Of a DNA stretch of 64,000 bases, positions 6,760-61,462 are shown in pieces. The notes under the pieces were generated by a model. That model was given only the letters and a program-made list of their open reading frames with translations. It was not told where the DNA came from and did no database searches. This stretch comes from an uncultured delta proteobacterium (GTDB lineage Bacteria; Myxococcota_A; Polyangia; Fen-1088). Every line of letters begins with the position of its first letter. Position 1 is the first letter of the stretch. The stretch lies in the NCBI GenBank assembly GCA_963824555.1, contig CAWGPW010000007.1, positions 26,186 through 90,185 of the forward strand, in the 5' to 3' direction. The translations under genes were made by a program, and so were the position numbers.

Positions 6760-7604
6760 CAGAATCCTCCTGTCAACACGGCGCCCGCTTGGCCAGGGCC
6801 AAAGGCAGGCAAGATAGCAACGTTCGTCGACGAGCTTGCGCCGGCCTTCAGTCCAAAACCGAATAGAATTGCGCCAGTAGCTATGCAGGCCGCGCCTACA
6901 CCGTACCCTACCCAAGCCATGGTTCTATAGGTCTTGCTCTCGGAGTCCTTGGCTGCGGAGTAGCTGACGCTGGTCTCCCATTGATTGATGATGCTATTGC
7001 TCATGAGGTTGAAAACCACCCCAGCGGCCACCGCCGCGACGCCGACGGATGCCGTGACGATGCCAGCGACTCGCAGACCCGACCCGCCATGGGTGGGCGC
7101 GGGCTGCGCCTCGGGTTGCGCGGCAATCGAGGTGGACGGCTCCGGAATCGAGGTGGGCTCCGGAGGTGCAGCGGGCGGAGGCGGAGGCGGAATAAACGGC
7201 TGGGGCGCCGACGCTTGGGACTTGCTCGATTGGTCGGGGGGCAGCCGATCCTTGCAATCCGAGATGTGCTTTTCGGCCGAGGCTCGGTCCGCCGCATCCA
7301 GCTTTGCGTCGGGCACGCGCAAGTATTCCTCGAACCTGGAGATGGCGTCCTCGTACCGATGGTTCTGTTCGAAACAGCGGCCCTGATTGAAAATGTACGT
7401 GGGGTCCTTAGTATCGATGAACAGATCCGCCAGAATGTTGACACCTTTGTTGTAGTCGCCGCCAAGGCACGCCTTTCGGGCAGCGCGCTCCTGGGTGTGC
7501 TTGTTCGCCGCGAGAGCGGGCGTGGTCGCAAGTGCCACGAGAACGAAAGCGGCCGAAGGCACGCAAAGAAAAGGGCTGGCTAAGCGTTCAATAGGTTGGC
7601 TCAT
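6759..7604 (-). CDS. Secreted/membrane protein: TPR-like N-domain, Pro-rich spacer, two C-terminal TM segments
   Basis: Starts MSQPIERLASPFLCVPSAAFVLVALATTPALA (signal peptide). Then …RYEDAISRFEEYLRVPDAKL…, PPPPPPAAPPEP and GIVTASVGVAAVAAGVVF / WVGYGVGAACIATGAILFGFG. Its stop TGA overlaps the downstream start in an ATGA at 6759. Confidence 0.8.
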   Translation of the reverse strand: MSQPIERLASPFLCVPSAAFVLVALATTPALAANKHTQERAARKACLGGDYNKGVNILADLFIDTKDPTYIFNQGRCFEQNHRYEDAISRFEEYLRVPDAKLDAADRASAEKHISDCKDRLPPDQSSKSQASAPQPFIPPPPPPAAPPEPTSIPEPSTSIAAQPEAQPAPTHGGSGLRVAGIVTASVGVAAVAAGVVFNLMSNSIINQWETSVSYSAAKDSESKTYRTMAWVGYGVGAACIATGAILFGFGLKAGASSSTNVAILPAFGPGQAGAVLTGGF

Positions 7605-7690
7605 AGCGGCGAATCTTGGCCAGATCGATGGACGATTGCAAGCACTTCTTGGGAGCATAGTGGTTTCAAGCACCATTCCTTCTTGACCAG

Positions 7691-7722
7691 ACAGCCTCTG
7701 GAAAACACAGCCTCTGGAAAAC
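7691..7722. repeat. Tandem 16-bp direct repeat (ACAGCCTCTGGAAAAC x2) ~90-120 bp upstream of gene 6759..7604
   Basis: Exact duplication read directly at 7691-7706 and 7707-7722. Confidence 0.6.
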
Positions 7723-7890
7723 GCCGATAACGCCTGATCTGTCAACGACGCCGCGTCGCGCTCTTACTGTCCCCTCTACCACGCCCGTTGGTGACTCCAC
7801 CGCCACCAATCGAGAGCACGCCAGCCGAGAGCCCCGTCGCCATAGAACCGCAAAACGCTGCATCGTCGCCACCAACTCCCCTGTCGATAG

Positions 7891-8105
7891 ATCTTCGGTC
7901 TACAAGTCGACAAGTGCGCTGAGTGCGGGGGCACGTGAAACTGCGCGCCCTGGTGCGCGACCCCGAGAGCATCGAGCGCTTCTTGCGCCACGAGGGCCTG
8001 TGGTCCGAACCGCGAGATCCTGCCCGCGCCCGCGCCCCGCCAAACCGCGGCCCCATGCCCCGTCTTGCCCCCTGCAGCCAACAGGATTTCGGCTTCGACA
8101 CGTGA
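7891..8105 (+). mobile_element. IS91-family transposase C-terminal remnant (truncated, frameshifted)
   Basis: IFGLQVDKCAECGG then, after a frame change in the G5 run at 7927-7931, HVKLRALVRDPESIERFLRHEGLWSEP…APPNRGP…*. This matches the C-terminal CxxCGG…(R/K)L.A.I.DP.SI.R.L.H.G pattern of IS91-type transposases. A stop lies immediately upstream and no N-terminal part is present. Confidence 0.55.
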
Positions 8106-8419
8106 GCCCCGGCCCGGTCTCATCTGACTCAGTCCAACGCCAACCCCTGCTCGTCGTCCACAACTGTAGTCGCGCCCACGAGGAAACCGCAGTTCAGAAG
8201 ACCTCCCAGCCAACCGACCCGCCGGTTCAACGCTTGCCGCCCGCCGGAAATCACCAGCGTCACCCATGCCCATTGCGGCCGGAAAGTCGATCGTTTCAAT
8301 TACGGCCCAGAACACTACGTGTGCGGCGCCGCCACCCGCGAAAGCCAGGCCAGGCGTGCTCAAAGCCGTCGCCGAGAGCGACGACGCAAGCGACGCCTGG
8401 ATAAGAAGAAGGCGCGAGA

Positions 8420-9805
8420 TCAGAACTGCGAGATGAACGCCCAGGCCAGCGGTGGAATAAAGGCCTTCAGGCCATCATCCCCGCCATTGGTCCCGTCATC
8501 CACGGCCGACGGAGTGTGTGCGCCATCGAACGTGCACACCTTGACAGGATAACCCGTCTTGCACCCTTCGAAGTCGTAGCAGACGTATTTCTTGCTGCCA
8601 ACCGTCGCCGTCGGGAACGTTGCGGGAACCGTGCAGCCATTGTCCGTGGCGTGCTGAATAACGCATGCTTTCCCGCCAGCGTTCCACCCACACGTATTAT
8701 CGCTCATGCCGGTCGTACTCATGTACGCGAGGGGCACATGATTATTCGTCGGTTGAGACAAAACGGTATTGGTCGGTGCCATCGTGACAGCGGCGCGCAG
8801 CTTCGTCGCACGCCCCACCGACAGCGTATAGCTAAACATCGCTCCGTAGCTGAAGCCGGTGGTGAAGACCCGGCTCTCGTCGATGCACAGGTCCGTGGTG
8901 ACTAGGGCGAGCAGGTCGTCGAAGTAAACGCTGTCCTTGTTGTAATCCCATAGCCCGCCGATGGGATCTGTGTCGGGGGCTACGAAAATGGCGGGTTGGT
9001 TCGCATCGGTCGCTTCGCGATGGAGCCCGAAATAGGCATAGTCTTTTGCGTCGAAGTTGGGACCATTAAATGCGGGATATAGGCCAGTCGCATTGCCGGT
9101 GTCCGAACCACCCATCTGGCGCCAGGAAAAGATCAGACGATACGGGTGCGTCGCATCGTAATCCGCCGGAATGTCGACGATGACGTCGCGACTAATGCCG
9201 CCACTCATAACCTTGAGTCTGGTCGACGTGGGGAGAGCGCCCGTAACCGACGTGCCGCCGGTCGTCAGCGTTTTCGCACCATCCGTGACGCCACAGCCTT
9301 TGCTCGGAACCGGTGCGGAGAGGCCTCCGGTACCGCCGTCCAAGCCGGTCGTGCCACCCGAGCCAGTCGCGCCACCCGAGCTTGTCGCACCACCCGAACC
9401 GGTCGCACCGCCACTGCCAGTCGCGCCGCCCAAGCGTGTCGCGCCACCCGAACCGCTCGCACCGCCACCGCCAGTCGCGCCACCCAGGCTGGTCGTGCCG
9501 CCCGAGTTGGCCGTGCCACCTGAGCTGGTCGTGCCACCCGAACCGCTCGCGCCGCCCGAAACGGTCGCGCCGCCCGAGCCGCGGCCACCACTACCGGTCG
9601 CACCGCCCGAGCTGGTCGCACCGCCCGAGCTGGTCACACCACCCGAGCTGGTCACGCCGCCCGAGCTGGTCGCGCCGCCTTTGCCCTGTGTGCCGCCATT
9701 GGCGCTGGCGCCTCCTTGGCCGGCAGCACCTCCGGTTCCTGAGGAACACCCGAGGAACCCAAGAAAGAGCGGGAGAGTGACCACAGTGAATCGTGCTACG
9801 CGCAT
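8420..9805 (-). CDS. Lipoprotein esterase, PHB-depolymerase / feruloyl-acetylxylan esterase (CE1-like) family, with a long Gly/Ser/Thr tether
   Basis: GGAGG RBS, then MRVARFTVVTLPLFLGFLGC (lipobox) and ~130 aa of GGATSSGG repeats. The catalytic part reads SKGCG…RDVIVDIPADYD…IFVAPD…RVFTTGFSYGAMF (GxSxG) …CTFDGAHT. The longer 789-aa track ORF is an upstream artefact. Confidence 0.9.
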   Translation of the reverse strand: MRVARFTVVTLPLFLGFLGCSSGTGGAAGQGGASANGGTQGKGGATSSGGVTSSGGVTSSGGATSSGGATGSGGRGSGGATVSGGASGSGGTTSSGGTANSGGTTSLGGATGGGGASGSGGATRLGGATGSGGATGSGGATSSGGATGSGGTTGLDGGTGGLSAPVPSKGCGVTDGAKTLTTGGTSVTGALPTSTRLKVMSGGISRDVIVDIPADYDATHPYRLIFSWRQMGGSDTGNATGLYPAFNGPNFDAKDYAYFGLHREATDANQPAIFVAPDTDPIGGLWDYNKDSVYFDDLLALVTTDLCIDESRVFTTGFSYGAMFSYTLSVGRATKLRAAVTMAPTNTVLSQPTNNHVPLAYMSTTGMSDNTCGWNAGGKACVIQHATDNGCTVPATFPTATVGSKKYVCYDFEGCKTGYPVKVCTFDGAHTPSAVDDGTNGGDDGLKAFIPPLAWAFISQF

Positions 9806-10993: not shown

Positions 10994-11586
10994 GCGAATC
11001 CCAGCAGCGACTACCGGCGAGGCGCATCGAGCCCGAAGCGCGCGAGCGCGTGGCGCACGCGCTGGCCCACAACTTCGCCGCGGACCACCTCGATGCCGAT
11101 GAGCTGGAGGCTCGCCTGGCACGCGTCTACGCTGCCACGACGGCGGAGGAGCTGGCGGCCGTCGTCGCCGACTTGCCGGAAGTCGTCCCGGACGCCGCGC
11201 TGGCGCCGGCCAAAGCTCCCGAGGCCCGCCGCATCTCCGCCCTCTTCTCGGCCCAAGAGCAACGGGTGACCGGGATGGTTCCGCGCCGCCTCGAGCTTCG
11301 CAGCAAGTGGGGCTACGTCGAGCTCGATCTCACCCGGGCGACGTTCGAGCCGGGGCTCACCGAGATCGACGTGCGCGCATTCATGGGCTACGTCGAGATC
11401 CGTTTCCCGGCCGACGTGCGGATCGAGAGCGGCGGCCATGCGCTGTTCGGGTTCTTCTCGCTCAAGGGCGGCTCGGGCGACACCCCCTCGCCCTGCGTGG
11501 TCAGGATCACCGGCCGCGCAACCTTCGGCTACGCGGAATTCTTCGTGAAGAGAGACAAAAAGGCGTTGCCGCCCACTTCGGAATGA
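10990..11586 (+). CDS. DUF1707 / LiaF-C-terminal-like (cell-envelope stress) domain protein
   Basis: MSESQQRL…AADHLDADELEARLARVYAATTAEELAAVVADLP is DUF1707-like. It is followed by …WGYVELDLTRATFEPGLTEIDVRAFMGYVEIRFPADVRIE…. The ATGA start overlaps the methyltransferase stop. Confidence 0.8.
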   Translation: MSESQQRLPARRIEPEARERVAHALAHNFAADHLDADELEARLARVYAATTAEELAAVVADLPEVVPDAALAPAKAPEARRISALFSAQEQRVTGMVPRRLELRSKWGYVELDLTRATFEPGLTEIDVRAFMGYVEIRFPADVRIESGGHALFGFFSLKGGSGDTPSPCVVRITGRATFGYAEFFVKRDKKALPPTSE

Positions 11587-11589
11587 GCC

Positions 11590-12744
11590 TCACATCGCCC
11601 GAACCGTCGGCGGATGGGCGGTGCCTGTCGCGGTGGCGACGATCTGAAACAGGTTGAGCGCGCGGGCGCGGAATTGGGCCGCGCTGGTCAGAAGGTAGAA
11701 CTTCCACATGCGGTAGAAAGGGTCGCCGTAGCGCGCGCGCAGGGTCGGCCAAGCCCGATCGAATTTCGCCCACCAGGCCATGAGGGTGTGGTCGTAGTCA
11801 GGACCGATGTTGTGAACGTCTTCGACAACCAAGAGGTTGTTCATGGCCGTCGCCAATTGGCCCAGGGTGGGAATGACCGCATTGGGGAAGATGTACTTGT
11901 GGTACCAAGGATCGATCTGGGCGCGCGGTTCTTGGCCGCCGATGGTGTGGATGAAGACGATGCCTCCAGGCGCAAGGCAGCGCGCCGCCAGGTCCATGTA
12001 CGCGCGATAGTTCTTGGGGCCGACGTGCTCCATCAGCCCGATGGAGACGACGGCGTCGTAGCTGCCCGTCGCCTTGCGGTAGTCGTCGAGGCGGATCTCG
12101 ACCGGCAACTGCGCGTGGCGCTCTTGGGAAAAGGCCCACTGCTCGCGGGACACCGTGTAGCCGACGACACTCGCCCCATAGCGTTCGGCTGCGAACGCGG
12201 CGAAGCCGCCCCAGCCGCAGCCAAGGTCCAGAATGCGCATGCCCGGGCGGGCGCCGATCTTGCGACAAACCAAGTCGAGCTTCGCTTCCTGGGCGGCGTC
12301 CAGGTTGTCCGCGTTCTTCCAGTACGCGCAGGTGTAGACCATGCGCGGGCCGAGCATGGCCTGGTAGAGGTCGTTGCCAACGTCATAATGGCGTTCGCCC
12401 ACTTCGAAAGGCCGCGCGGCCTGCAGGTTGCGGATGCGCGCCTTGACCGCATTCGCCAGCAGAACCCAACTCTCGCTCAGCACGAGGTCGAGCTGCGCGC
12501 GCGTGACCCGCTCGAACATCTGGTCGATGGCCTGACAGTCCCACCAGCCCTCGACGTAGGCCTCGCCGATCCCGAGCGTTCCGTCGCGCAGGGCACGCAC
12601 GTAGACGCGCTGGTCGTGGACCTGGATGTCCCACGGGGCGTCGCCGCCGATGGTGATGTCGGCACGCCGGAGAAGCTCGCGCATGGTTTCGGCCGCGCGG
12701 CGCTCGTCGAATACTGACAGCAACCTCCGTGCTGTTCCAATCAT
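11590..12744 (-). CDS. cfa: Cyclopropane-fatty-acyl-phospholipid synthase
   Basis: …HYDVGNDLYQAMLGPRMVYTCAYW…ILDLGCGWGGFAAFAAERYGASVVGYTVS…SIGLMEHVG…FRMWKFYL… are the classic CFA synthase motifs. Start taken at MIGTARRLL (12744). Confidence 0.9.
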   Translation of the reverse strand: MIGTARRLLSVFDERRAAETMRELLRRADITIGGDAPWDIQVHDQRVYVRALRDGTLGIGEAYVEGWWDCQAIDQMFERVTRAQLDLVLSESWVLLANAVKARIRNLQAARPFEVGERHYDVGNDLYQAMLGPRMVYTCAYWKNADNLDAAQEAKLDLVCRKIGARPGMRILDLGCGWGGFAAFAAERYGASVVGYTVSREQWAFSQERHAQLPVEIRLDDYRKATGSYDAVVSIGLMEHVGPKNYRAYMDLAARCLAPGGIVFIHTIGGQEPRAQIDPWYHKYIFPNAVIPTLGQLATAMNNLLVVEDVHNIGPDYDHTLMAWWAKFDRAWPTLRARYGDPFYRMWKFYLLTSAAQFRARALNLFQIVATATGTAHPPTVRAM

Positions 12745-13955
12745 GCCGAACCGTCCGCTGTGTGACCGCGCCCGAGCCACCGGTCGGCCCCGTTCAAGGC
12801 GACGTCGATGAGATGGGGCGCGGGCAGGCGGGCGCCCGAGAACAACCAGGCAAAGCCCGAGCTGACCGCGTGCCTGGATCTTCGCGAGAGAAAACTATCG
12901 GAAGGCGCCGCAGGACGCGCGGGCGAGGATGGCGAGAAGCGGCTGCGCAAGGAGCTGGCGGTCTCGCGCAGGCGAAAGACGCGCCGGTAGTCCGCCAGCA
13001 CCGGATGGGCGGCAAGACGAGTCGGATAGCTCGCGGGCTCACCGGCTAGAATCGCCTCGGCGAGCAGGCGACCCGAAAGCGCCGCGGGCAAGATCCCCTC
13101 GGCGGTGATCGGTTGCGCAAGTCCCAGGCTGTCGCCGATGAGATAGACACCGCCCTTGCCATCGTCGGAGACGCGCGCGGCCCCGCGTAGGTGTTCCGGG
13201 TGGTAGAGGAAGTACGAGTACCCTTTCATGGCGTCCAGCTCGGGGTCCGAGTCGGCGGGCACGTGGCCAGCGGCACGGAAATTCGCGCGTGCGCTCTGCC
13301 AGGCGGTCCGAACGTCCTTGGGATCCACGGTGCCGGTTCCGATGTTCAGCCAATCGGTCTTGGGCACGTTCCAGGAATAGCCGGACAGATCGTCATGCAG
13401 AAGCAGTTCGGGCTCGCCGTCTCGGCCCAGGCGCGTGCGGGCAATAGCAGCCGGATCGGCGCGAAACTCATGTTCTTGCACGCCAACGGGGCCCATCGGT
13501 CGCGCCGGCGGAAACCGGCGAGCGACCGGGCAGTGCGTTCCGCCCGCGCCCACCAGGTGGCGCGCACGGAGACCTGCGACCGACCACGATCCGTCCCCGT
13601 CGCGCGCGATTTCGCCAACCGGGGCGCCGAGATGCAGCTCGGCGCCGCTTGTGCGCAACAGGAAATCGTCGAATTCGAAGCGGCGGACGAACCACCCGTG
13701 GCACGGGATGGCGCGATCTTCCCCGCCGTAGCGAACGTGGCAGGTACGCCACTCCCAGCGCCCGCCTGGATAGCCGTACGGGGACAGCTCGAGTACGTCC
13801 CAGATGGGCGGCGACAGCCAGCCCGAGCACAGTTTGACCCTGGGAAATTGGGAGCGATCCACCACGGCGACGTGTAAACCGGCCCGGGCCAGGAAGCGCG
13901 CGCAGGTGCTCCCCGCCGGCCCGCCACCAACGACAATCGCATCGAGGACATCCAT
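12741..13955 (-). CDS. FAD-dependent oxidoreductase (geranylgeranyl-reductase-like family)
   Basis: MDVLDAIVVGGGPAGSTCARFLARAGLHVAVVDR is a GxGxxG Rossmann motif, and …YLIGDSLGLAQPITAEGI… follows. Its stop overlaps the cfa start in an ATGA at 12741-12744. Confidence 0.85.
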   Translation of the reverse strand: MDVLDAIVVGGGPAGSTCARFLARAGLHVAVVDRSQFPRVKLCSGWLSPPIWDVLELSPYGYPGGRWEWRTCHVRYGGEDRAIPCHGWFVRRFEFDDFLLRTSGAELHLGAPVGEIARDGDGSWSVAGLRARHLVGAGGTHCPVARRFPPARPMGPVGVQEHEFRADPAAIARTRLGRDGEPELLLHDDLSGYSWNVPKTDWLNIGTGTVDPKDVRTAWQSARANFRAAGHVPADSDPELDAMKGYSYFLYHPEHLRGAARVSDDGKGGVYLIGDSLGLAQPITAEGILPAALSGRLLAEAILAGEPASYPTRLAAHPVLADYRRVFRLRETASSLRSRFSPSSPARPAAPSDSFLSRRSRHAVSSGFAWLFSGARLPAPHLIDVALNGADRWLGRGHTADGSA

Positions 13956-17197: not shown

Positions 17198-19597
17198 CTA
17201 CTTGACGACGATGGCATCCACCGCGACCGGTCCTGGTCCGCGATTGATGATGGCGATGGCGTGCTGTCCTGAAATCAGGCCACTCACCTCGGACACCATC
17301 TGCTGGGCCTGGCGCGCACCTGTTGAGGACAGATCCGCCGTCGCCTTGGATTGTCCATCGATCTGAATCTCAATGCTTCCATCCCCGGATTCTTTCGGAG
17401 CGTAGACCGACACGTCAGTCCCGGTGAATGTGGAAGTCCAGGTATCCCCAGTGTTGGTGCTGGTGGTGAGATCGTTGTTGTAGTCACCCGTGCCCAGGTT
17501 GGACTTGCGAAGCCATCCGGGAGCCGCCGCCCCCGGATCGTCGTCGTTGATCCAGCCCTTGTCGTGGGTGATGCGCAGAACGCGCATCTTCGACGCCACT
17601 TGCTGATCGGAGATCCCCGACAGCGCCGATACCGACCCGCTGGGCGTCACCGTTAGACCTTGACTGCCTTGAGTAAACGTCATCGCAACCGTGGAGCCGA
17701 GCAGCTCGACTTTGGACACCTTGCCCAAGGTTGCCCCCCCGGTCTTCAGCGCCGGGAGGGTGACCGCGCCTCCGTTCCAACCGAGGAGCGTGGCGTACAC
17801 ATTGCCGTTGTTGCGCGTATAGAGGACCGTACTGTCGCCGGAGACTTCAAAGGGACGGGATGCATACACGGCCTCGCCGTTGACCTTCAACCAAGCACCA
17901 ATGTCTTGGGCGATCTGGGTACACTGGGGGTCGAGATTCCCCCGGCCGTGCTGCGTGAGGTTGAGCAGCAAGCTGCCATTTCGGGAGACGTTCTGCATCA
18001 GCGTCGTGACCAGACTCCCGGCGCTTGTGTATCCCGCCCCGGTCATGTAGTGCCAGTTCCCGCCCTGAATGTCGAGCTCTGTCTGGAAGGGATAGGCATT
18101 GATGTCGGCGAGGGTAACCGCCTCCGTGCTCGCGACCAGGGCGCGCTGAACGTAGGGGATCAGGGCTTCATTGTCTTGGAAGCTATCGTATTGTCCGCCC
18201 ACACCCTTCATGTTCATCACCACGTCCATCTTCCCCTGATTCCAGGTCAAGGATTTGTTGTAGTAGTTTGCCAAGATCGTCGTTGCAATAGAACCCAGCC
18301 CCATATGGACGCCCAGATCCGTTTGGGAATCGCCGGCGTGGTCGTCGAAGTAGACGACGTCAGGATGATACTTGTTGATGGCGTCATCGACTCGATACAT
18401 GAACTGGGTGCCATAGGCCGAATTGTTGCACGAGTTGTTCGAACAGTCGGTGGTGTGCTTGGGCCCATAAAGATCAGCAGGATTCATGCCCTCCCACCAT
18501 TTGCCTTTGCCATCCGCTGTCGTTAGCAGCGCATCGTAGGGTCCCTTCGCGTCGCTGGTGTAACGAATCGGCATCCACTGACCCCAAGTTCGAGCTGGCG
18601 TGTTGTGGAAGCCGATGCCGAACCGCAGACCCTTTTGGCGCGCGATCGGCTCCCAGGTGCCCACCATGTCCTTCTGCACTCCGACCCGGACGGAGTTCCA
18701 GGGCTGGTAGGTCGAATCGAAGTTGTCGAAGTTGTCATGGTGCGCGCCCATAGCCATGAAGAACTTGGCGCCCATTTGCACGTACAGATCCATCAAGGCG
18801 CTGGGATCCCACAGGTCGACCACCCAGTTCTTGCAGATGTCCTTGTAACCGTAGACGGACGGATCACCGAAGTGGCTGACGTTATAGTTGAAGTCGGCCG
18901 AGCCCTCCTGATACATGTGATAGGCGTACCAGTCGCCTTGCTCGGGCATGGATTGAGGATCCCAGTGAGCCCACGCGCCGAATTTGGCGTCACGCCACCA
19001 CTCCGGCGTTGCGTAGGCCAGGCCGAGCGCCTTCCAGTCGGCGGTATACGGGCCCGTGGCCACGGGGAACTTCGGCAGGTTCCAAATGTCCGTGCCCGCG
19101 ACCGTTCCCCCCGTGCCCTGCTGGCCCCCGGTCCCAGGCGAGCCCCCAGCGCCGCCGGTCGCGCTTGTACTCGCACCGCCGGTGCCTCCGCCTGCTGCAC
19201 CACCGGTGGCGTTGCGGCCACCAGACGCAAACATGCCACCGCTTGCAACCCCGCCCCCTTGGCCACCGCCTTGTCCTTGGGGACCACCACCCGAACCGGA
19301 TAGCGTGCCACCGGACGACGAAGTCGTGGAACCGCCCGCATTGCTCGTGCCGCCACTCGCGGCCACACCCCCGCCTCCTTGGCTTCCGCCTTGGCCCGGG
19401 ATGCCTCCTCCCGAACTGGAACCACCCGCGCTGGTGGTATTGCCTCCTACCGCTAGGCCTCCGCTCCCGAGCCTTCCACCGCTGTTGACGCTACCTCCCG
19501 TGGCAGCGCCAGGAGAGGTATTCCCGCTGCAGGCGACCGAGAACCCCATGACGCTAAAAACAAGAACCATTGCCGTCTGCCTTGTCATCATCTTCAT
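17198..19597 (-). CDS. GH29 alpha-L-fucosidase lipoprotein with a C-terminal CBM-like domain
   Basis: MKMMTRQTAMVLVFSVMGFSVAC and a Gly-rich tether. Then …AKFGAWAHWDPQS…GDWYAYHMY…GAKFFMAMGAHHDNFDNFDS…, the GH29 pattern. The C-terminal ~140 aa form a beta-sandwich-like domain. Confidence 0.9.
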   Translation of the reverse strand: MKMMTRQTAMVLVFSVMGFSVACSGNTSPGAATGGSVNSGGRLGSGGLAVGGNTTSAGGSSSGGGIPGQGGSQGGGGVAASGGTSNAGGSTTSSSGGTLSGSGGGPQGQGGGQGGGVASGGMFASGGRNATGGAAGGGTGGASTSATGGAGGSPGTGGQQGTGGTVAGTDIWNLPKFPVATGPYTADWKALGLAYATPEWWRDAKFGAWAHWDPQSMPEQGDWYAYHMYQEGSADFNYNVSHFGDPSVYGYKDICKNWVVDLWDPSALMDLYVQMGAKFFMAMGAHHDNFDNFDSTYQPWNSVRVGVQKDMVGTWEPIARQKGLRFGIGFHNTPARTWGQWMPIRYTSDAKGPYDALLTTADGKGKWWEGMNPADLYGPKHTTDCSNNSCNNSAYGTQFMYRVDDAINKYHPDVVYFDDHAGDSQTDLGVHMGLGSIATTILANYYNKSLTWNQGKMDVVMNMKGVGGQYDSFQDNEALIPYVQRALVASTEAVTLADINAYPFQTELDIQGGNWHYMTGAGYTSAGSLVTTLMQNVSRNGSLLLNLTQHGRGNLDPQCTQIAQDIGAWLKVNGEAVYASRPFEVSGDSTVLYTRNNGNVYATLLGWNGGAVTLPALKTGGATLGKVSKVELLGSTVAMTFTQGSQGLTVTPSGSVSALSGISDQQVASKMRVLRITHDKGWINDDDPGAAAPGWLRKSNLGTGDYNNDLTTSTNTGDTWTSTFTGTDVSVYAPKESGDGSIEIQIDGQSKATADLSSTGARQAQQMVSEVSGLISGQHAIAIINRGPGPVAVDAIVVK

Positions 19598-19876
19598 AGA
19601 CCAGCCCCCCTGGCATTTCGGTTCAGCAATCGTGAGGGACTTGTGTCGTTTTCCTGGGCCAAGCGCGATGGCTCGTGCCGGCTCGGACTCAAGACGTGTC
19701 CATGAATGGACCCGTCTTGAACATTGTGCCCCCACCTGCGGCCGAGCCCTCGGCTCGGCAACTCAGCGCCCACAGACCTACACATTGTCCAACATCCAGT
19801 TTCCGCCAGAACCTGTCGATTTCTGACCCGGAATGCGCGGACACGCGGTCTATCATTGTGAAACTCGCCCTACGTC

Positions 19877-20500
19877 ATGCCAACGCTTCCTTCCCACGTG
19901 CCCCTGTCCTTGGTAGTCGGCCAAGACCGCCGTGCTGCCAGCGATGGTGATGTCGCGCGGGCGCTGAGCGTCGGGGAGGCGTGGGCCGCGGTGGAAACGT
20001 GGCGGCGGTTCGCGCCCATGGTGCTCACGCTCGCGAGGCGTACCTTGGGCTCTCATTCCGAAGCGGAAGACATTGGGCAAGACGTCTTCTGCCGGGTGTA
20101 CCGCAAGGTAAGAACCCTGCGCGAGCCCGATAGCTTCCGCAACTTCGTTTATACCTGCGCCCTGCGGGTGATTCAGACCGAGCTTCATCGCAAGAAGATG
20201 CGTTCCTGGCTATCCTTCGCGCAGCCTGGCTTGCTGGATTGCCAAAGCTCAGGAACGCTGGACGTGGAGTCGCGCGATCTGTTGCGTAGGTTTTATCGTC
20301 TACTAGAACGCCTGGCACCGCGCGACCGCATCGTGCTCGTCCTTCGGCGCGTGGAGTCGATGAGCGTGGAAGAGATTGCCGCCGCGACGAAGTCTTCGGA
20401 ATCCACGGTGAAGCGCTCGCTGGCACGCGCTTCAAGCCGCATGTCTCGCTGGATGAATGACGAGCCACGATCGGCTGACGGAAAAAGGTGGGGACGATGA
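19877..20500 (+). CDS. ECF (group 4) RNA polymerase sigma factor
   Basis: Region 2 reads EAEDIGQDVFCRVYRKV. Region 4 reads MSVEEIAAATKSSESTVKRSLARA. Confidence 0.9.
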   Translation: MPTLPSHVPLSLVVGQDRRAASDGDVARALSVGEAWAAVETWRRFAPMVLTLARRTLGSHSEAEDIGQDVFCRVYRKVRTLREPDSFRNFVYTCALRVIQTELHRKKMRSWLSFAQPGLLDCQSSGTLDVESRDLLRRFYRLLERLAPRDRIVLVLRRVESMSVEEIAAATKSSESTVKRSLARASSRMSRWMNDEPRSADGKRWGR

Positions 20501-21793
20501 GAAGTACGATTGGCGAACCCAAGGAATCTCCCGCCCTGACCAAGGCGACCGACCTTTGCCGCAACACCCTGGGGCCGCCGACCCCGGCGGAGCTTGAGCT
20601 GGGACTCGACAGTTTCCTTGCGCGCATTGCCCCGAACAAGGAGCGCCCTCGGCGATTTCGATTTGTTCGTTGGTCACTGGCGGGTGCTACGGTGGCACTG
20701 TGCACCTTGGTTGCCTTGCAGATTGCTTCAGTCTATCGAACGCGCTGGTCTACTGGTAGGGCGCCAACGCTTGCTTACCGGGTCGATGGAGGCAGTGTTC
20801 TCGAAGGGGGCTATCTGCGTGAATCCGGTCACGCGGGCATGAACGTGGTGTTCAACGAGGGAAGCCGATTGACGCTCGCGCCGGGAACACGCAGCCGGCT
20901 CCGGGTGGTCGACCGCGACAGTGCCCACGTGGCCATCGAACGTGGCCGAGGATCTTTCCAGGTCGTGCACAAAAGCAATCGGCGGTGGTTGGTCGATGTC
21001 GGCCCATTTTTGGTCACGGTCACGGGAACCGTCTTCACGGTCTCGTGGGATCCGGTGCGCGAGGAGCTCGAATCTCAGGCTGCGAGAAGGCAGCGTCTTG
21101 GTCAGTGGCCCCGTCTCGGCGGGAGAAATAGCGTTGCGGGCTGGCCAGCGGTTGGTCGCAAACCTGGCAAGAGTCGAGACCGTCATCACGGAAGAGACGC
21201 CGGAGCAAGCGAGCAGTGAGCCACCCAGTTCTCCCCCTGCACCAGCCGTGGCTCCACCCGGACTGCAGCCGTCGACCCCTGGTCCCTCCCCAGCACCCGC
21301 TGCATCCACGGTCGCCAAGCTCGCGGGTGACCATCAATGGGGCCTCAAGTTGGCGCGGGGCCAATGGGACCGCATTCTCCAGGACGCCAACCGTATCGGC
21401 GTTGAGGCGACCCTGAGCGAAGCGTCCAGCGAAGACCTTTTCGCTCTTGCCAACGCGGCTCGCTACCGACACCGTTCCGATCTGGCTCGGTCCGCCCTGC
21501 TTGCCGAGCGTCGGCGTTTTCCCGAGTCGCCGCGTGCGCTCGAAGCGCTCTACCTGCTTGGTCGCGTGGAGGAAGGCCGGGAAACCGGGACTGCTCAGGC
21601 CATCGCGTGGTACGATGACTATCTCACCCGCGCGCCGACCGGCCCGCTCGTGGGAGAAGCTTTGGGACGAAAGATGACTCTCACCGACAAGCTCGAAGGC
21701 CCGGCCCGGGCGCGCTCCCTCGCGGAAGAATATCTTCGTCGCTTCCCCAAGGGGAACTATGCTGGATCGGCGCGCGAGCTTCTCGTCCCGTGA
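20497..21793 (+). pseudogene. FecR-domain anti-sigma factor with a C-terminal TPR-like domain; apparent +1 frameshift near 21073
   Basis: The ATGA start overlaps the sigma stop. Sequence: MRSTIGEPK…, TM WSLAGATVALCTLVALQIA, FecR core …NEGSRLTLAPGTRSRL…VTVTGTVFTVSWDPVREELE. It continues only in the frame of ORF 20921..21793 (LRLREGSVLVSGP…RFPKGNYAGSARELLVP*). May be a sequencing indel. Confidence 0.8.
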
Positions 21794-53272: not shown

Positions 53273-54700
53273 CTAGGGGAACTTCAGCGATGTAAAGGCC
53301 GCTTGGATGTTCGCCATCATTGCCTGGATTTCGCTCGCGCTCATGACGTTATTCGTAAAGAGAGACTCGCGCATGAGGACCGGATCCGGCTGGCTCAAGT
53401 CGCCCCCGCCGCCAAGGTGGATGGCCGTCCCCGCGTTGAGCTTCCCCGCCTTGGGAGGCGATTTCGTAACCCCTTGGTTGCTGTTCAGGTTAATAATCAC
53501 AGCGTTCGCGGTCGGGTCGTACTGGGTCACGACCATGGCGTTGTCGACGGGTGACGTACCGTAGTCGTACATGTCGTTGTTTTCCTCCTCCTCTGCGCCG
53601 ACGCAATATTTGTTGGATGCTCCGCAGTTGGTGGCAATGCAGCAGCCGCCCGAATCCTTCCACCCGTACGCCAGGGCGAGCATGAAATCGGTCCCGGTGG
53701 TGTCGCTCGCGTTGTACTTGTGGGTAAGGCCGATGACGCCGCAACAATAGACTTGATTGGCGACCGGCTTTCCATTGTACATGATGCCCATGGCCTTCGA
53801 CCCACCGTTGATGCCGGTCGCAAAATTGTCGCCGGAGAGCGCATATTCCTGCGGCGAAACCGTCGTGAGGATCGGCAAGCCCGTCGCCGACTCGATCGTG
53901 AACTTCGCGGCGCAAGTGTAGCCGCCGGCGCTGCAGTCCGGCTTCCAGGGTGTGTTCCACACGCCCGGTACTAGATCGTTACTCCCTTTGTGGATCTGGG
54001 CGTAGATCTTCGAGACCACGCAATTCGACTGGCTTGAGCCGCAGTAGGCGCTCCAGGTCGTCATGTCCGCCTTGTGGTCGCTGGTCTGGCCGATATCGAG
54101 CGTCGCCGCTTTCGCGTCCGAGGCCTTTCCGAGCTGAAAGAGCGGCCCTGTGTAGCTCGCCGTCATGGCCCTCGCCACGCTGTACGCCTCCGCGCACCCG
54201 CTGCCGAGCACATCACAGGGGCCTTGGTAGGCCACTTGGGTGCCGCCTGCCCCGGTCTGGCCACCGCTTCCCGTGGTCCCACCGGAGGCCGTCGTGCCGC
54301 CGGAAGCTGTTGCTCCCCCGCGAGCAGTCGCCCCGCCCCCTCCCTGTTGACCGCCAGAGCTGATGATGCCGCCGGTGAGGGTGGCGCCTCCACTGCCGCT
54401 GGTGCCGGCGCTCGAAGTCGTTCCACCCTTGGCCGTGATGCCGCCGCTGCCGATCGCGCCGCCAGCTGAGCTGGTCGTGCCGCCGGCTGAGCTGGTCGTG
54501 CCGCCGGCTGAGCTGGTCGTGCCACCGGCCGAGCTGGTGGTCCCGCCGCTGCCCGAGCTGCCGCCGGCGCCACCCGATTGATCCTGTCCACCGCTACTCG
54601 TGGTGCCTCCTGATTGCGCCGCTCCACCCGGGGTGGTCGTGCTGCAACCTGAAAGAGCCAGGAGTGTGGCTACACCTGAGAAAAGAACACGAACTCTCAT
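53273..54700 (-). CDS. Lipoprotein with a divergent GH54-catalytic-like (ConA-fold) domain
   Basis: AAGGAG RBS, MRVRVLFSGVATLLALSGC and a Gly-rich tether. Then GPCDVLGSGCAEAYSVARAMTASYTGPLFQL…, which aligns with the PCDIYAA…ALYGAYNGKLYQV start of the GH54 gene. The CCFDYGN motif is absent. Confidence 0.8.
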   Translation of the reverse strand: MRVRVLFSGVATLLALSGCSTTTPGGAAQSGGTTSSGGQDQSGGAGGSSGSGGTTSSAGGTTSSAGGTTSSAGGTTSSAGGAIGSGGITAKGGTTSSAGTSGSGGATLTGGIISSGGQQGGGGATARGGATASGGTTASGGTTGSGGQTGAGGTQVAYQGPCDVLGSGCAEAYSVARAMTASYTGPLFQLGKASDAKAATLDIGQTSDHKADMTTWSAYCGSSQSNCVVSKIYAQIHKGSNDLVPGVWNTPWKPDCSAGGYTCAAKFTIESATGLPILTTVSPQEYALSGDNFATGINGGSKAMGIMYNGKPVANQVYCCGVIGLTHKYNASDTTGTDFMLALAYGWKDSGGCCIATNCGASNKYCVGAEEEENNDMYDYGTSPVDNAMVVTQYDPTANAVIINLNSNQGVTKSPPKAGKLNAGTAIHLGGGGDLSQPDPVLMRESLFTNNVMSASEIQAMMANIQAAFTSLKFP

Positions 54701-54880
54701 GTGACTGCTCCTTCGGCGGTTAAGACTCTCGGCGAGCTGCACTCGAGCCCTATCCAAACTATCCCCTCTACCCAAGGGAAGACAACCCCTATTTGCTCAG
54801 GTGGTTCCACTCTCCCTGCGAGCCGGGTGTGGAAAACTCCCGCTTGAATCGCGTGGGTCGAGCTTCTACGCTCTTGCCCC

Positions 54881-57009
54881 GTGCAGGCGAGGTACCCACG
54901 GAGCCCGGTCCCGAGCTCGGTCCGACGACGTTTCCGCAATGGCCGAGCGCCGCGGGTCGGCCTGACCTCCCTGGTGCTCGCCGGTCTTTGGGCCGGCAAC
55001 GGACGCGCGGCGCAGCCGGCACCGGTGGCCCAAGCGCCGCCAGCGGCTCAAACGGCGCCGGCCCGCGGCGGGCTCATGGTGGTCGAGGGGGGACGCTTCG
55101 TGGGCCAGACGACGCCCGAGAACGCGCGCCGGGACGGGTTCACCGTGGTCGATCTTTCGGATAACTGGCTGCAGCACATCTTCTCGGAGGAGCCCGGCAA
55201 ACCGCAGCCGCTGCGGCCCGATTTGATCGCCCTAGCCAACGGACGGCTGCCCGGGGAAAAACCTTCGCGCGCGCCCGCGAAGACCGTTACTTCGAAGCCT
55301 TCGGAGTGTTCCCCAGCCTGAACCTGCTGCGCCGGCGGCTGGCAGACAGCAAGCGCCACGCTTGCCACGACAAGGTGGCGGACAAGGCACTGGAACAGAT
55401 GTCCCCCAAGAGTGTGATCGTGCCGGAAGAGCCGGAGAAGTCCTCGAGCACCCCGGAAGACGGCGCACCGGCCGACCTCGCGCCCGCACCGGAGGCGCCG
55501 CCGCGGAAGCCCTTGAGCCCCGCGGCTCAGCGGGCGGTGATCGCGATGCAGGCGCACCTGCGCTGCGAAGGCCTGCTATTGCACGGGGCAAAGCGCGCCC
55601 GCATGGATCCCCGGACGGTCGCGGGCCTGCAGCTCTATCAGCGGATGCTCATGATCGCGGACAACGGACGCATCGATCTCGAGACCCGCACCGCGCTGTT
55701 GGCCGATAGCCGCGAGCACGACTTCCGGGCGCTGCTGCGCGCGCTTCGCGAGCGGGTTGTCGACGTCACCGGGCTGATCGAAGACGGCTCGGCCCTGGGT
55801 GTCCTCGGCGAGGTACAGGGGCGCGTGCTCGACAGCGCCGAGTTCCGGCCGCTGCCGGTAGAAGCGACCGGTGCCGGCACCAAGGTCACGCCGGCGCCGG
55901 ATCTGATTGCCGCGGCCACCCAGGCCGCCAGCCAGGCGCTGGGGTGGACGTCGCCCGACGCCGTCCTCGCGAGCACGCTGGTGGTGACTCCTGCGCCGCC
56001 GCCTGCCTCGCGACGGCCCCCACACAAAGTGGCCGCGTCCGGTGCGCTTGCGCCCTTGCCCACGGCCGTCGCCATCCGCCTACCGCCGCTGCCGGCCTAC
56101 CACGGCCCCAAGATGGATCTACGGGCGGAAATCGATCGCGGCGAAGTTGTCCTGAAGCGGCCGGCCCTCGACAAGGACGGCAAGAAGAAGTGGCATCCTC
56201 CCGTCGCCGATCGCCCGACCCTCACGTTGTACGCGCGCGTGGGCGAACGCGAGGTGGCGCTGTGCCGCTGGCCAACCACCATCGGGGGCTGGAAGACCAT
56301 CGAGCGCTCCGACGGTACTATGGCGCTCAAGTACAAAGAGTCCGTCACGGGCGAAGCCCTATGGCCCGAGATTCTCGCTACCCCGACCTGGCACCCGTCG
56401 TCGGGCCTGCCCACCCGCAGGCTGCTCGTCAAGCGGGGCGACGGCTGGGCGCCCAAGGCCGAGGTCATCGGCCCAGGCTACCGCGCGGCCTACGGGCTGG
56501 TGGCGATCACCCACCTGCAGATTGAGGGGCGCGACGAGCACGGCGAACCGCAGCTCATGGACCACCGTATTCGGACCCACGGCACACCCGCCTACCGATC
56601 GGTCAAACGCGGCGAGAGCAGCGGCTGCCACCGGCTGTACAACCACCTGGCCCTGCGCCTGGCCGGCTTCCTGGTGCGACACCGGGCGAACATTCGCCAA
56701 GGCCTCGTGCCCGAGGATTACGTGCGACACCTCCAATACAAGGGCCAGGAAGTGGACCTCGAGGACGACAACAAGGGCTACCGCTTCGAGCTCGTGCCGC
56801 CCGTGCCCGTGACCATCCTCCACGGCGACGTCCGCGGCAGCGCCAGAATCCGTCAAGGGCACGGTGCCGCTGATGGTGGAACCGTAGGGGCGAGTCGTGG
56901 ACCACGAGTCACGTGCCCTCGATTCATGAGCCGGCCTCCCGGCCTGACCGAAGGTAATGCCCCACCCTGGCCTCCCAGCCGGCCTCCCGGCCTCCCTGAC
57001 CGAAGGTAA
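54881..57009 (+). pseudogene. L,D-transpeptidase (YkuD-domain) protein; apparent -1 frameshift in the A5 run 55257-55261; 3' end runs into a repeat array
   Basis: ORF 54881..55321 has a signal peptide and ends …ALANGRLPGEK. ORF 55306..57009, whose frame is open further upstream, reads TFARAREDRYFEAFGVFPSLNLL…. A6 instead of A5 fuses them. The YkuD catalytic motif is IRTHGTPAYRSVKRGESSGCHRLYN. The last ~25 codons are translated REP-like repeats, so the true stop is uncertain. Confidence 0.8.
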
Positions 57010-57494
57010 TGCCCCACCCTGGCCTCCCAGCCGACCTCCGGCCTCCCTGACCGAAGGTAATGCCCCACCCTGGCCTCCCAGCCGACCTCCGGCCTCCCTG
57101 ACCGAAGGTAATGCCGGCCTCCCTGCCTCCCTGACCGAAGGTAATGCCCCACCCTGGCCTCCCAGCCGACCTCCCGGCCTGACCGAAGGTAATGCCCCCG
57201 GGCACGGTGCCGCTGATGGTGGAACAGTAGGTGCGGGGAACTACCTTGGTGAGACGGCACGATCTCGATTGAGCTTTCTCAGATCGCGCTCGTAGCACGG
57301 CTGGCTGCCCTGCTTGTCCCTGTGCAGGACCACCATCCTCTTTTCCCCTGCTCGCCCTACCGCTTGGTGATTTTCGGCCCCACATACGCCACCCCCACCC
57401 CTACCCCCACCCCGGTCTCCCTGACCGAAGGTAATGTGCGGCGGCCTTGACCCTTGGCGGACCGAAGGTAATGCGAATCGCGACCGACGGTAAT
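56944..57494 (+). repeat. Array of at least 9 REP-like motifs (CTGACCGAAGGTAATGC; core ACCGA[A/C]GGTAAT), all in the same orientation
   Basis: Core starts read at 56947, 56999, 57050, 57101, 57134, 57182, 57424, 57461 and 57483. Spacing is 33-52 bp within the main block. Confidence 0.85.
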
Positions 57495-57674
57495 GAAAGG
57501 TCGCATGACAAACGACAGGGGTGACAGCGGCTTCGGCCATGAGACAGGGGTCAGGAATGGCTGTGACACGCCTCTCACGCATGCGTCACGCTCCACAGGG
57601 TGGCATTTACTCTAGACATGAGTGCAGGCGCATACCGTGCCGAGGCGGCAAACCGACGATCAGCTCGCGACTGG

Positions 57675-58625
57675 CTATGTTGGCGCCGCGCGTCCTACAG
57701 GTAGCGCCGACGCCGTTCGCACGGTTTCGACGATATCGCACAGAACGCGCGCGAACTTGCGCATCCAGTAGGTGCCGCACGGGAAGCGCACGTCGGCGAT
57801 ACCAGCCATCCACGATTTGATCGCGAACTTGTAGCTCTCGAGAAACGCCTTGTTGCGCTGGATAGCCTCGATTCTCGACCACTTGTCTTTGGCTGCAATG
57901 CGCGGGCAGACACCGAAGCGGGGGGCGGCGCTTTGCGGAGAATCGAACGGCTTTTGCGCAAGAACCGCCTGCCGCCCTAGAACGCTTTTGGCGGCAACAA
58001 GTCGACGCTCGCGATGTTCCGCCTCGGCAGCACGCACGCGCTCGGCGACGAGAGCGTGCCATTCCTCTTCGGCCTGGCTGGCGAAGCCGCGCGGACGGCA
58101 GATGGGGACAGCGACGACCTCTGGCTGCTCCCCGTCTGGCCGGAAAAAGAAGGTGGGGCGTGTTGCTGTCATCTGGCATGTTGAGAGTGCATTCCGGAAG
58201 CTGCTGACCCCAGGCCATTCTTCAGCGGTGTCAACGAGGCCAGCAGCACAAGGGTTGGCGTAGGCGTAGACCATTTTTGCGAGGACATCGTCGGGCTCGA
58301 CCAGTCGGACAACAGACGTTGGGTCGGACGACCAGAATGCCTCGAAGCGGCCGAGATGGGTGTTCAGGCAGCGAGCAAGGAGAGCGTGAAAATGCTCGGC
58401 AAAGACCGGGAAATTGCCGTCTGGGTCGTGCACGCCCGCGTGATAGTGGTTGGACATTGCGACGACAAAAAGGATGTCGACCTTTGCCCGGCGGGCAGCG
58501 AGAGCAAGACAGTAGATGAATGCGTTGTTGGTTTCCTGGTCCGGAAGCAGGAAGAAGCGCCGCTCGGAACAGCGGCGAGTGATCATATAGTCGCAACCGG
58601 GCAGGACTTGGCGTGGGAGGGTCAC
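57675..58625 (-). CDS. REP-associated tyrosine transposase (RAYT)-like Y1/HUH transposase
   Basis: GTG start. …GCDYMITRRCSERRFFL…ILFVVAMSNHYHAGVHDP (HUH = HYH)…MVYAYANPCAAGLV (Tyr motif Y..NP..AGLV). 316 aa, flanked by inverted REP-like arrays. Confidence 0.85.
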   Translation of the reverse strand: MTLPRQVLPGCDYMITRRCSERRFFLLPDQETNNAFIYCLALAARRAKVDILFVVAMSNHYHAGVHDPDGNFPVFAEHFHALLARCLNTHLGRFEAFWSSDPTSVVRLVEPDDVLAKMVYAYANPCAAGLVDTAEEWPGVSSFRNALSTCQMTATRPTFFFRPDGEQPEVVAVPICRPRGFASQAEEEWHALVAERVRAAEAEHRERRLVAAKSVLGRQAVLAQKPFDSPQSAAPRFGVCPRIAAKDKWSRIEAIQRNKAFLESYKFAIKSWMAGIADVRFPCGTYWMRKFARVLCDIVETVRTASALPVGRAAPT

Positions 58626-58654
58626 GCTGGCTTATCGGTGGCCGGCACGGGGAA

Positions 58655-59175
58655 GTTGCTTGGGAATTACCGTCGTTCGGGGTTCCGGGAAAATTCCGTT
58701 GGGGTTCCCGGGAAAATTACCGTCGGTTGGGGTTCCGGTTGGAGGGGTCCCGCCCGGTTGGGGTTCCGCCGGGGTTCCGCCGGGAAAATTACCGTCGGTT
58801 GGGGTTCCGCGGTTCCTGCTTGGGAATTACCGTCGTTCGGGGTTCCGGGAAAATTACCATCGGTTGGGGTTTCGGGGTTTCGGGGTTTCGGGAGGGGTCC
58901 CGCCCGGTTGGGGTTCCGGCGGGGTTCCGCCGGGAAAATTACCGTCGGTTGGGGTTCCGCGGGGTTGGAAAATTACCGTCGGTTGGGGTTCCGGAGGAGG
59001 GGTCCCGCCCGGTTGGGGTTCCGGCGGGGTTCCGCCGGGAAAATTACCGTCGGTTGGGGTTCCGGGGTTCCGGGGTTGGAAAATTACCGTCGGTGGGGTT
59101 CCGGGTTCCGGGAAAATTACCGTCGTTTGGGGTTCCGGGGTTCCGGGTTCGGGGTTCCGGGGGTTCCGGGTTCCG
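58655..59175 (-). repeat. Array of at least 11 REP-like motifs (GGGAA(A)ATTACCGTCGGTTGGGGTTCC), the reverse complement of the left-array core
   Basis: ATTACCGTCG occurs near 58666, 58716, 58788, 58826, 58853 (variant), 58938, 58971, 59043, 59081 and 59116, with a degenerate copy near 58692. Higher-order ~70-160-bp duplications are visible. Confidence 0.9.
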
Positions 59176-59527
59176 GTTGGGGTCAGCCGAGCCCCAACGC
59201 TTGGTATCCGGCCAACCTCGCCGCACTCGTCGTGGGGAATTCCGAGCCCGCCGCGGGACGCTTCCTTTTCGGGTCCGGACACCGCGCGTTCGCCATGGCC
59301 ACACACGCCGAAGTCGCGTTCGCCCTCGCCGGCAACCTGTGCCTACTGGCGTCCTTGCTGAGGCGTCGGATGGGCGCGGTCCTTCATGACCTGGACCCGG
59401 CGGCACGGGACGTCCGCCACCCTAGCGTAGCGTTCGGCGCGGCGTCTCCCCTTGCCCGGCCAGTGAATCGACCCAAGCGCGAACGCGCGAGATCTCGCCG
59501 TCGAATACCGTTGGTGCGCATCGCTCC

Positions 59528-61223: not shown

Positions 61224-61462
61224 CGCGTGGTCCGCGCCGAGCTATGCTCGGCGCGGACCATCGCGGGAAGGTTTGGAAACCCTCCCAGGGTTTCCATCTC
61301 AGCGCGTGGGGAGCCGCCGAGCTATGCTCGGCGCGAACCATCGCGGGAAGGTTTGGAAACCCTCCCAGGGTTTCCATTTCAGCGCGTGGGGAGCCGCCGA
61401 GCTATGCTCGGCGCGGACCATCGCGGGAAGGTTTGGAAACCCTCCCAGGGTTTCCATTTCAA
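61224..61462. repeat. Three tandem ~80-bp repeats, each with two strong hairpins, filling the intergenic space inside the ABC/LolA-like operon
   Basis: The landmark GAGCTATGCTCGGCGCG occurs at 61239, 61319 and 61399, giving an 80-bp period. Hairpin 1 is CCGCGCCGAGC-TAT-GCTCGGCGCGG. Hairpin 2 is GGAAACCCT-CCC-AGGGTTTCC. The array abuts the stop codon at 61459-61461. Confidence 0.9.

Follow-up and report, generated by a model that had tools for sequence, protein, structure and literature searches.

The DNA analysed here is a stretch of 64,000 nucleotides (the window; GC content 64.4%) from an uncultured delta proteobacterium, contig CAWGPW010000007.1. It carries a gene for a Y1 HUH protein of 316 amino acids (aa) that is bracketed by inverted arrays of a short sequence motif. 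The features of this locus are listed below by position in the window and strand.

57675..58625, minus strand: gene of the Y1 HUH protein, 316 aa, GTG start; recognised by its open reading frame (ORF), invariant residues, NCBIfam, AlphaFold, Foldseek and hhalign
58626..58677, minus strand: conserved leader of 51 nt and gene-nearest unit, core 58666-58677 being AACGACGGTAAT; possible promoter/operator
58655..59182, minus strand: upstream array, 10 core copies and 1 degenerate copy in gene orientation; the unit on the gene strand is CCCCAACCGACGGTAATTTTCC
58730..59081, minus strand: 97-nt higher-order block in three copies (58730-58826, 58880-58976, 58985-59081), 76-89% identity
57500..57516, minus strand: terminator-like hairpin located past the stop codon and before the first downstream unit, from a consensus scan only
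57406..57494, plus strand: proximal downstream sub-array, 3 units, inverted relative to the gene
56929..57198, plus strand: distal downstream sub-array, 6 units with a 51-nt period
56857..56892, plus strand: first copy of a 36-nt direct repeat, in the 3' tail of ORF 55306..57009
57200..57235, plus strand: second copy of the 36-nt direct repeat, 94% identical to the first

Two arrays around one gene

The core ACCGWMGGTAAT is found 15 times without mismatch in the window, where 0.01 matches are expected, and the 12-mer ACCGAMGGTAAT with at most one mismatch gives 19 matches against 0.16 expected. Nine of these copies are on the plus strand (56947-57494) and ten on the minus strand (58666-59127), with one extra degenerate unit near 58689, and no copy is present in the remaining ~61 kb of the window. 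The left side consists of six exact copies of CTGACCGAAGGTAATGC and three variants, the right side of GGGAAAATTACCGTCGGTTGGGGTTCC in four exact and six near copies plus the degenerate one. Comparison of the repeats confirms that the two arrays are mutually inverted, as stated in the original prediction, which had been made from the sequence alone. Its counts of at least nine left copies in one orientation and at least 11 right copies could also be reproduced, the latter as ten core copies plus the degenerate one, but the left copies form two sub-arrays of six (56929-57198) and three units (57406-57494) and not a single array. A higher-order duplication described on the right as a block of ~70 bp turned out to be the 97-nt block that starts at 58730, 58880 and 58985; here Tandem Repeats Finder reports a period of 105 with 93% matches. 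The amplification was further called very local and unusual for that. All 19 copies are indeed at the locus, but this is not unprecedented, as repetitive extragenic palindromic (REP) elements are concentrated around tnpA_REP in Marinomonas (PMC8266576).

The arrays are strongly strand-biased, with the G-rich strand pointing (5' to 3') away from the gene on either side. The plus strand of the upstream array is G-rich (G 219, C 117), that of the distal downstream sub-array C-rich (C 128, G 63). Telomere-like runs are present on the G-rich strand, namely GGGGTTCC in the upstream array of the window and GGGATTT, GGGTTTGA and GGGGATTCC in relatives. Three of the 11 G-quadruplex-type motifs in the window are located inside the arrays. 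The copies of the 36-nt direct repeat bracket the distal six-unit sub-array, and because the first copy is part of the 3' tail of ORF 55306..57009, this frame now reads into array sequence (tail ...PPGLTEGNAPPWPPS...). The second copy is followed by an alternative tail of the ORF and also by a degenerate inverted unit (AACTACCTTGGTGAG).

A sigma-70 promoter scan gave nothing for the gene at 57675..58625, and Rfam gave no match. A 14-nt inverted match between codons 7-11 of the gene and the 97-nt block is, in our judgement, consistent with chance combined with the block being triplicated.

A large family of Y1 HUH proteins

The gene product contains both the HUH motif SNHYHAGVH and the tyrosine motif VYAYANPCAAGLV. 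Residues H60, H62, Y120 and N124 are invariant in an alignment of 93 sequences whose identity to the window protein ranges from 33 to 83%. The tyrosine, only 58 residues past the HUH motif, stands in the sequence YAYANP, and Y...NP, the class-2 signature Y-x3-NP, is found at the same position in all representatives sampled. Sequence models detect the protein poorly. A Pfam scan returned no family at E<=1, PF01797 (Y1_Tnp) included, and the NCBIfam model REP_Tyr_transpos (NF047646) gave 37.5 bits (E 2e-9), below its equivalog cut-off of 80 bits, with residues 7-138 aligned to model positions 6-144 of 146 and thus to nearly the whole model. A sequence-profile search of the PDB with the window protein also produced nothing significant; the relationship became visible only by fold comparison and by hhalign.

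The AlphaFold model depended on the input. With 15 close sequences it was poor (pLDDT 68), and with the diverse 93-sequence alignment it was good (pLDDT 94.9, pTM 0.91), the whole protein being predicted as one compact body. The N-terminal part (~residues 1-175) has a predicted TnpA_REP-like fold, into which the family-specific C-terminal half packs in the same model. The top Foldseek match is E. coli TnpA_REP with the REP hairpin bound (4ER8; E 3.9e-7, TM-score 0.75 on target), and 29 of the 30 top matches are TnpA_REP, IS608, ISDra2 or IS200. The hhalign comparisons used sequences from supplement 5 of PMC3733652. They gave a probability of 89% for E. coli RayT and of 98.7% (E 2.7e-16, residues 3-229) for the TIRYT protein aba2776 of the acidobacterium Koribacter versatilis, with the HUH and tyrosine motifs aligned in both cases.

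Sequence and predicted fold identify the window protein as a genuine Y1 HUH enzyme from the lineage of REP-associated tyrosine transposases (RAYTs), predicted to cleave and rejoin single-stranded DNA through a 5'-phosphotyrosine. The sequence comparisons place it as a relative of TnpA_REP/RAYT and, more closely, of the TIRYT proteins (class-2 Y1 HUH). The original prediction was therefore right to call it RAYT-like from its two motifs, which also align in the profile comparisons. It was likewise correct in noting a length of about twice that of classical RAYTs. Neither a TnpB nor IS200-type ends, which the prediction had named as signs of an ordinary IS200/IS605 TnpA, are present at the locus.

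An exact look-up of the window protein sequence (P0001) found it not on record. A word-index search gave more than 1481 matches, and the 120 best are nearly all 299-332 aa long, most of them exactly 316 aa, and 62-84% identical; no Pfam domain is on record for these 120 homologues. In an exhaustive profile search, 4546 clusters (50% identity) were found at E<=1e-3 and 891 at E<=1e-30, nearly all of which align across the full ~300 aa. This ~300-aa family is large, unannotated and invisible to Pfam. A search of 72,556 plasmids revealed no homologue, and a protein scan of viral contigs only one 5' fragment. This fragment (L161 380-800, IMGVR_UViG_3300044712_002666, labelled viral) encodes residues 1-60 only, is cut at the HUH motif and is preceded by CCCTGACCGAGAG-type units. 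Scanning the viral contigs with the array pattern gave only chance matches or unrelated tandem repeats, none of them adjoining a homologue.

RAYT genes are typically single-copy and rare on plasmids. In the family described here, some metagenome assemblies hold more than one gene copy. Three full copies and fragments are found in ERZ25039590. Two homologues, 62-68% identical to the query, are found in ERZ25039495 on contig_49853 (L003) and contig_57377 (L019), each with its own unit variant (ACCGAGGGTAGTTTG with TTACCGTCGGTCAGGGATTT, and GTCCGAGGGTACTCC with AACTACCCTCGGAGC). They may represent two paralogous systems in one genome or come from two separate organisms.

Conserved architecture and unstable arrays

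The same layout, with upstream units in gene orientation and downstream units inverted, is present at every close relative (62-84% identity) with enough flanking sequence, which amounts to eight independent loci (window, L001, L003, L004-7, L008-11, L019, L020 and L037/38). Among 11 gene copies scanned, the gene orientation is shared by 51 of the 57 upstream core matches, and the inverse orientation is found in 51 of the 57 downstream ones. Of the eight scanned loci with an upstream array, six have the gene-nearest unit at -51/-52 relative to the start codon; the corresponding copy of the window is the variant AACGACGG, which was missed by the scan pattern and assigned to -51 manually. The leader blocks GCAAC, TGCCG and CCGAnA recur in the window, in L008 and L038, and also in L039 (37% identical). 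In two distant relatives (37-42% identity) the flanking repeats are preserved as altered versions only: the 37%-identical one retains the leader and downstream-type GTCGGTGGGGTTTG units, and the 42%-identical one lies on a contig of 1.4 kb with different short repeats at its two ends. At L001 an IS200-type gene (1173-1667; 164 aa, Pfam Y1_Tnp), bounded by the 20-nt repeat AACCCCTCGCCTTCAGGCGA that contains a hairpin, separates the homologue from its downstream array, from which it follows that a classical Y1 insertion sequence (IS) landed inside such a locus.

The unit shared among close relatives consists of a C-rich flank, CCGANGGTA(G/A/C) and a T-rich flank. The conserved core CCGANGGT(A) is asymmetric, and its central N varies even inside one locus. 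The mini-palindrome ACCG-N-CGGT, which the original prediction had noted in the core, can be seen in the window but is not kept in the family: the palindrome ACCGNCGGT arises by happenstance only where N is C. Nor are the units hairpin-forming. Single units and multi-unit blocks, folded as single-stranded DNA (ssDNA) of either strand, did no better than dinucleotide shuffles (z +1.8 to -1.95), and the only common pairing was a 3-bp ACC/GGT stem. The tetranucleotide GTAG is contained in the units of most relatives, and GTA(G/A/C) is located at the 3' end of the core and not 5' of a stem.

The arrays change by insertion, deletion and duplication of whole blocks between otherwise identical strains. 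L008 and L009 have an identical protein and identical compared flanks, and their arrays differ. A 160-nt insertion in L008, 33 nt into the coding sequence, is composed of extra and partial units and a second copy of the unit, the leader and the first 33 nt of the gene, and this repetition restores an intact gene. Downstream, a 78-nt insertion in L009 (6218-6295) relative to L008 has the inverted hexamers CTAGAG and CTCTAG at its ends. Between L004 and L005 the difference amounts to two units. The 36-nt duplication in the window has the same A-insert-A form as these rearrangements. Part of the 78-nt segment was also found in opposite orientation in L031 (1-95), where it adjoins unrelated sequence.

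The most extensive example is contig_23052 of ERZ25039590 (L038), where a 13-kb stretch contains two complete copies of the gene (93% identical) together with four 5' fragments of ~60, ~600, ~267 and ~180 nt (17490-20510); a further copy is on another contig of the same assembly. All fragments open with the gene-proximal unit and the leader, have one orientation and are separated by array units, and the ~600- and ~267-nt fragments run at their 3' ends straight into the C-rich edge of an array unit. Homology between paralogous copies (L038, L020) starts at about -57 and stops 20-35 nt past the stop codon. The gene-proximal unit is the point where this homology begins. In one L038 copy an internal deletion joins about the first 120 nt of the coding sequence to ~57 nt from near the 3' end. 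One upstream array of L038 is split by an IS21 element (IstA/IstB, 7361-9669), and a copy without downstream array in L020 is followed by group II intron reverse transcriptase-like sequence and toxin-antitoxin genes (11200-13900).

Interpretation and relation to known systems

Genes for Y1 enzymes flanked by inverted repeats are already established as REPtrons (PMC3333891, PMC8266576) and as TIRtrons (PMC3733652), the latter named after terminal inverted repeats (TIRs). The enzyme class, the conserved cis-architecture, the motif and the array instability are the observations on which an interpretation can be built. We regard the locus, with a probability of roughly 0.6, as a REPtron/TIRtron-like locus of a previously unannotated class-2 Y1 HUH subfamily, whose units are the cognate sites of the enzyme and whose arrays are remodelled by nicking and rejoining. 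The protein would bind the units, and its HUH/Tyr centre would nick and rejoin ssDNA at or beside a unit, most likely when replication or transcription unwinds the DNA. Local expansions and deletions would result when one unit is cut and the end is rejoined at a second unit with the same polarity. The same reaction could also duplicate adjacent sequence; examples would be the 36 nt of the window, the 87 nt of L008 and the nested set of 5' gene fragments of L038. The gene-nearest unit, fixed at -51, may double as an operator that regulates the gene, and the sites would stay at the locus instead of spreading, unlike those of classical REP/RAYT systems.

Several points weigh against this explanation. 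The link between protein and units is an inference and not biochemistry. The window protein fails the Pfam Y1_Tnp model entirely. To our knowledge, known Y1 enzymes recognise folded hairpins, and the units, which fold no better than shuffled sequence, lack these. Replication slippage or homologous recombination between repeats could generate the array polymorphism without the enzyme. Finally, the locality of the motif covers only ~190 kb of sampled DNA and one related population probed with an exact 22-nt pattern, not the source genome.

A bolder version of the enzyme-driven remodelling appears unlikely to us. It holds that the system is self-contained and non-dispersing: a nick at the gene-nearest unit would start one-ended, rolling-circle-like copying into the gene and leave nested duplications with fixed 5' and variable 3' ends, and the enzyme would keep reshaping two G-rich, telomere-like arrays that face outward. 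In this version the locus would be maintained as a hypervariable DNA structure driven by the enzyme and would not serve as a source of genome-wide repeats.

Equally doubtful is an autonomous, IS-like mobile TIRtron, in which gene and arrays move together and the arrays act as multi-site TIRs. The ends are inverted, ERZ25039590 has several copies at 92-93% identity on two contigs, and the copies are surrounded by clustered fragments and other insertion sequences. The three closest relatives (window, P0002 and P0004) share no synteny and have unrelated neighbouring genes, which could be taken for movement; at ~83% protein identity, however, missing synteny does not separate mobility from ordinary rearrangement. 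The homology of the copies runs from the gene-proximal unit to just past the stop codon and not to the outer array edges, where no target-site duplication was seen. The copies fall short of near-identity, and most of them lie together within 10 kb. The protein shows an unusual uniformity (316 aa, 62-84% identity, more than 100 clusters) and is absent from the plasmids and essentially absent from the viral contigs searched.

The original prediction favoured a classical REP/RAYT system, in which the units are REPs or REP doublets (REPINs) mobilised by the enzyme into many intergenic copies and the flanking arrays are only their local part. The RAYT-like enzyme, the inverted flanking repeats as in REPtrons, the GTAG tetranucleotide in most relatives and contigs that break at arrays (six metagenomic contigs carrying the gene end in or beside them) speak for it, and the source genome lies outside the scanned DNA. 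However, no dispersal was detected. As in the rest of the window, no unit was found in ~130 kb of flanks around homologous loci, and the only further 8-mer matches in these are without unit flanks. Searching a genome collection that does not include the source genome with a 21-nt degenerate pattern for both unit types (CCYRACCGAMGGTAATKYYCC) gave seven single chance matches in unrelated genomes. A scan of JGI metagenomes with a 22-nt exact pattern for the P0013 population yielded 16 matches. Of these, 14 were rejected as dispersed units and attributed to chance because all represent one conserved coding site in a PfkB-like gene. In the sample with the P0013 locus (154-kb contig) the pattern matched only this locus and one other contig, which starts in the downstream array, then runs identically into the DNA beyond and is hence the adjoining contig. 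The scans, among whose DNA the source organism itself is not found, argue against REP-like abundance, and the motif appears confined to the locus and not spread genome-wide like classical REP elements. Within the scanned DNA, this is the outcome that the original prediction had named as its own refutation. As the units, moreover, form no hairpins and carry GTA(G/A/C) 3' of the core instead of 5' of a stem, the classical system is less credible still.

Least probable is that the arrays are only binding sites (operators or iteron-like platforms) of this or another protein, with the enzyme substrate elsewhere and the variation due to slippage: the nearest unit fixed next to a conserved leader, a short non-hairpin core suited to duplex recognition and a motif conserved across the family without co-varying with the protein would fit, but as many as 15 units on each side of the gene, strictly inverted in polarity between the sides, exceed the needs of regulation, and rearrangements that duplicate non-repeated flanking DNA differ from simple slippage.

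For the preferred explanation, a locus of cognate sites remodelled by its own enzyme, REPtrons of E. coli, Stenotrophomonas and Marinomonas (PMC3333891, PMC8266576, PMC2817692) offer one comparison. Common to both are a Y1 HUH protein with the class-2 Y..NP motif, the structural resemblance to 4ER8, a gene bracketed by inverted copies of a short repeat and, inside the unit, a tetranucleotide of the GTA(G) type; a concentration of repeats around the gene is likewise described from Marinomonas (PMC8266576). In contrast to REPtrons, the window units are not hairpins and have the tetranucleotide on the other side, no dispersed copies of the motif were found in the scanned DNA, and the core is conserved across close relatives (62-84% identity) instead of varying between species. 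The protein also differs, being twice as long with a family-specific C-terminal half, below the NCBIfam RAYT cut-off and without a Pfam Y1_Tnp match.

TIRtrons and their TIRYT proteins, which correspond to TnpA_Y1 subclass 2.1 or Bertels group 1 (PMC3733652, PMC6006769), are closest by sequence (hhalign 98.7% to aba2776). The N-terminal pattern LPR.V.PG...R. is found in both, both are longer than RAYTs and have inverted, non-hairpin flanking repeats, and TIR families are sometimes small or absent in the rest of the genome. Unlike TIRYTs, the window protein has no Bac_DnaA_C or HTH (HTH_23, HTH_28) C-terminal domain by Pfam, and WQ is replaced by FW(S/T)S. The flanks are arrays of 3-15 short units instead of one long TIR, and the TIR motif GGGGWSAS is not enriched in the window (19 matches vs 27 expected, none as inverted flanks).

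The TnpA proteins of IS200/IS605 share the HUH/Tyr fold (Foldseek matches to IS608, ISDra2 and IS200 with E 1e-4 to 1e-5) but have Y...Q in place of Y..NP and ~150 aa in place of 316 aa. Unlike these elements, the window locus has inverted ends and neither tnpB nor one-strand subterminal hairpins, and the paralogues of its family are only 92-93% identical, whereas IS200/IS605 elements occur in many near-identical copies. Long class-2 subclasses without REPs, 2.1 and 2.3, were described by Quentin et al. (PMC6006769). Subclass 2.3 (NHYH, median 325 aa, no REPs; PMC6006769) resembles the window protein in the NHYH motif, in length and in having no reported association with REPs. It is set apart by description through a 55-aa insertion between beta3 and alphaC, which would push the tyrosine much further from the HUH motif than the spacing seen here, by the Y motif YVDLNP and the W motif WE, and by its restriction to Chromatiales and Alteromonadales.

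Distinct from these systems are a Pfam-missed subfamily with a distinct C-terminal half, arrays of a short non-hairpin motif, the conservation of this motif across relatives of 62-84% identity and a first unit in fixed register with the gene; the copies, in addition, appear purely local. We know of no established cellular role for domesticated Y1 transposases such as RAYTs and TIRYTs. The family offers an unusually clear candidate substrate in its shared short motif, a fixed position of this motif relative to the gene and natural strain-to-strain rearrangements as readout, and therefore binding, the mapping of cleavage sites and in vivo instability are directly testable. The locus could show whether such enzymes are able to process sites that form no hairpin and to work in a purely local manner. 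Metagenome assemblies break at the arrays, and the family merits a profile model of its own.

Two further features of the window lie outside the locus. An 80-nt tandem repeat (61235-61461; 2.8 copies, 97% identity) is intergenic after an ABC-ATPase gene, and each of its units contains two perfect hairpins, CGCCGAGC-TAT-GCTCGGCG and GGAAACCCT-CCC-AGGGTTTCC. These form a better REP-like palindrome than the array motif and are found in the window only at this position. On the minus strand, 53273-54775 encodes a predicted lipoprotein of 500 aa with a long Gly/Ser/Thr repeat region (GGTTSSAGGTTSSAGG...), which is overlapped by spurious ORFs on both strands.

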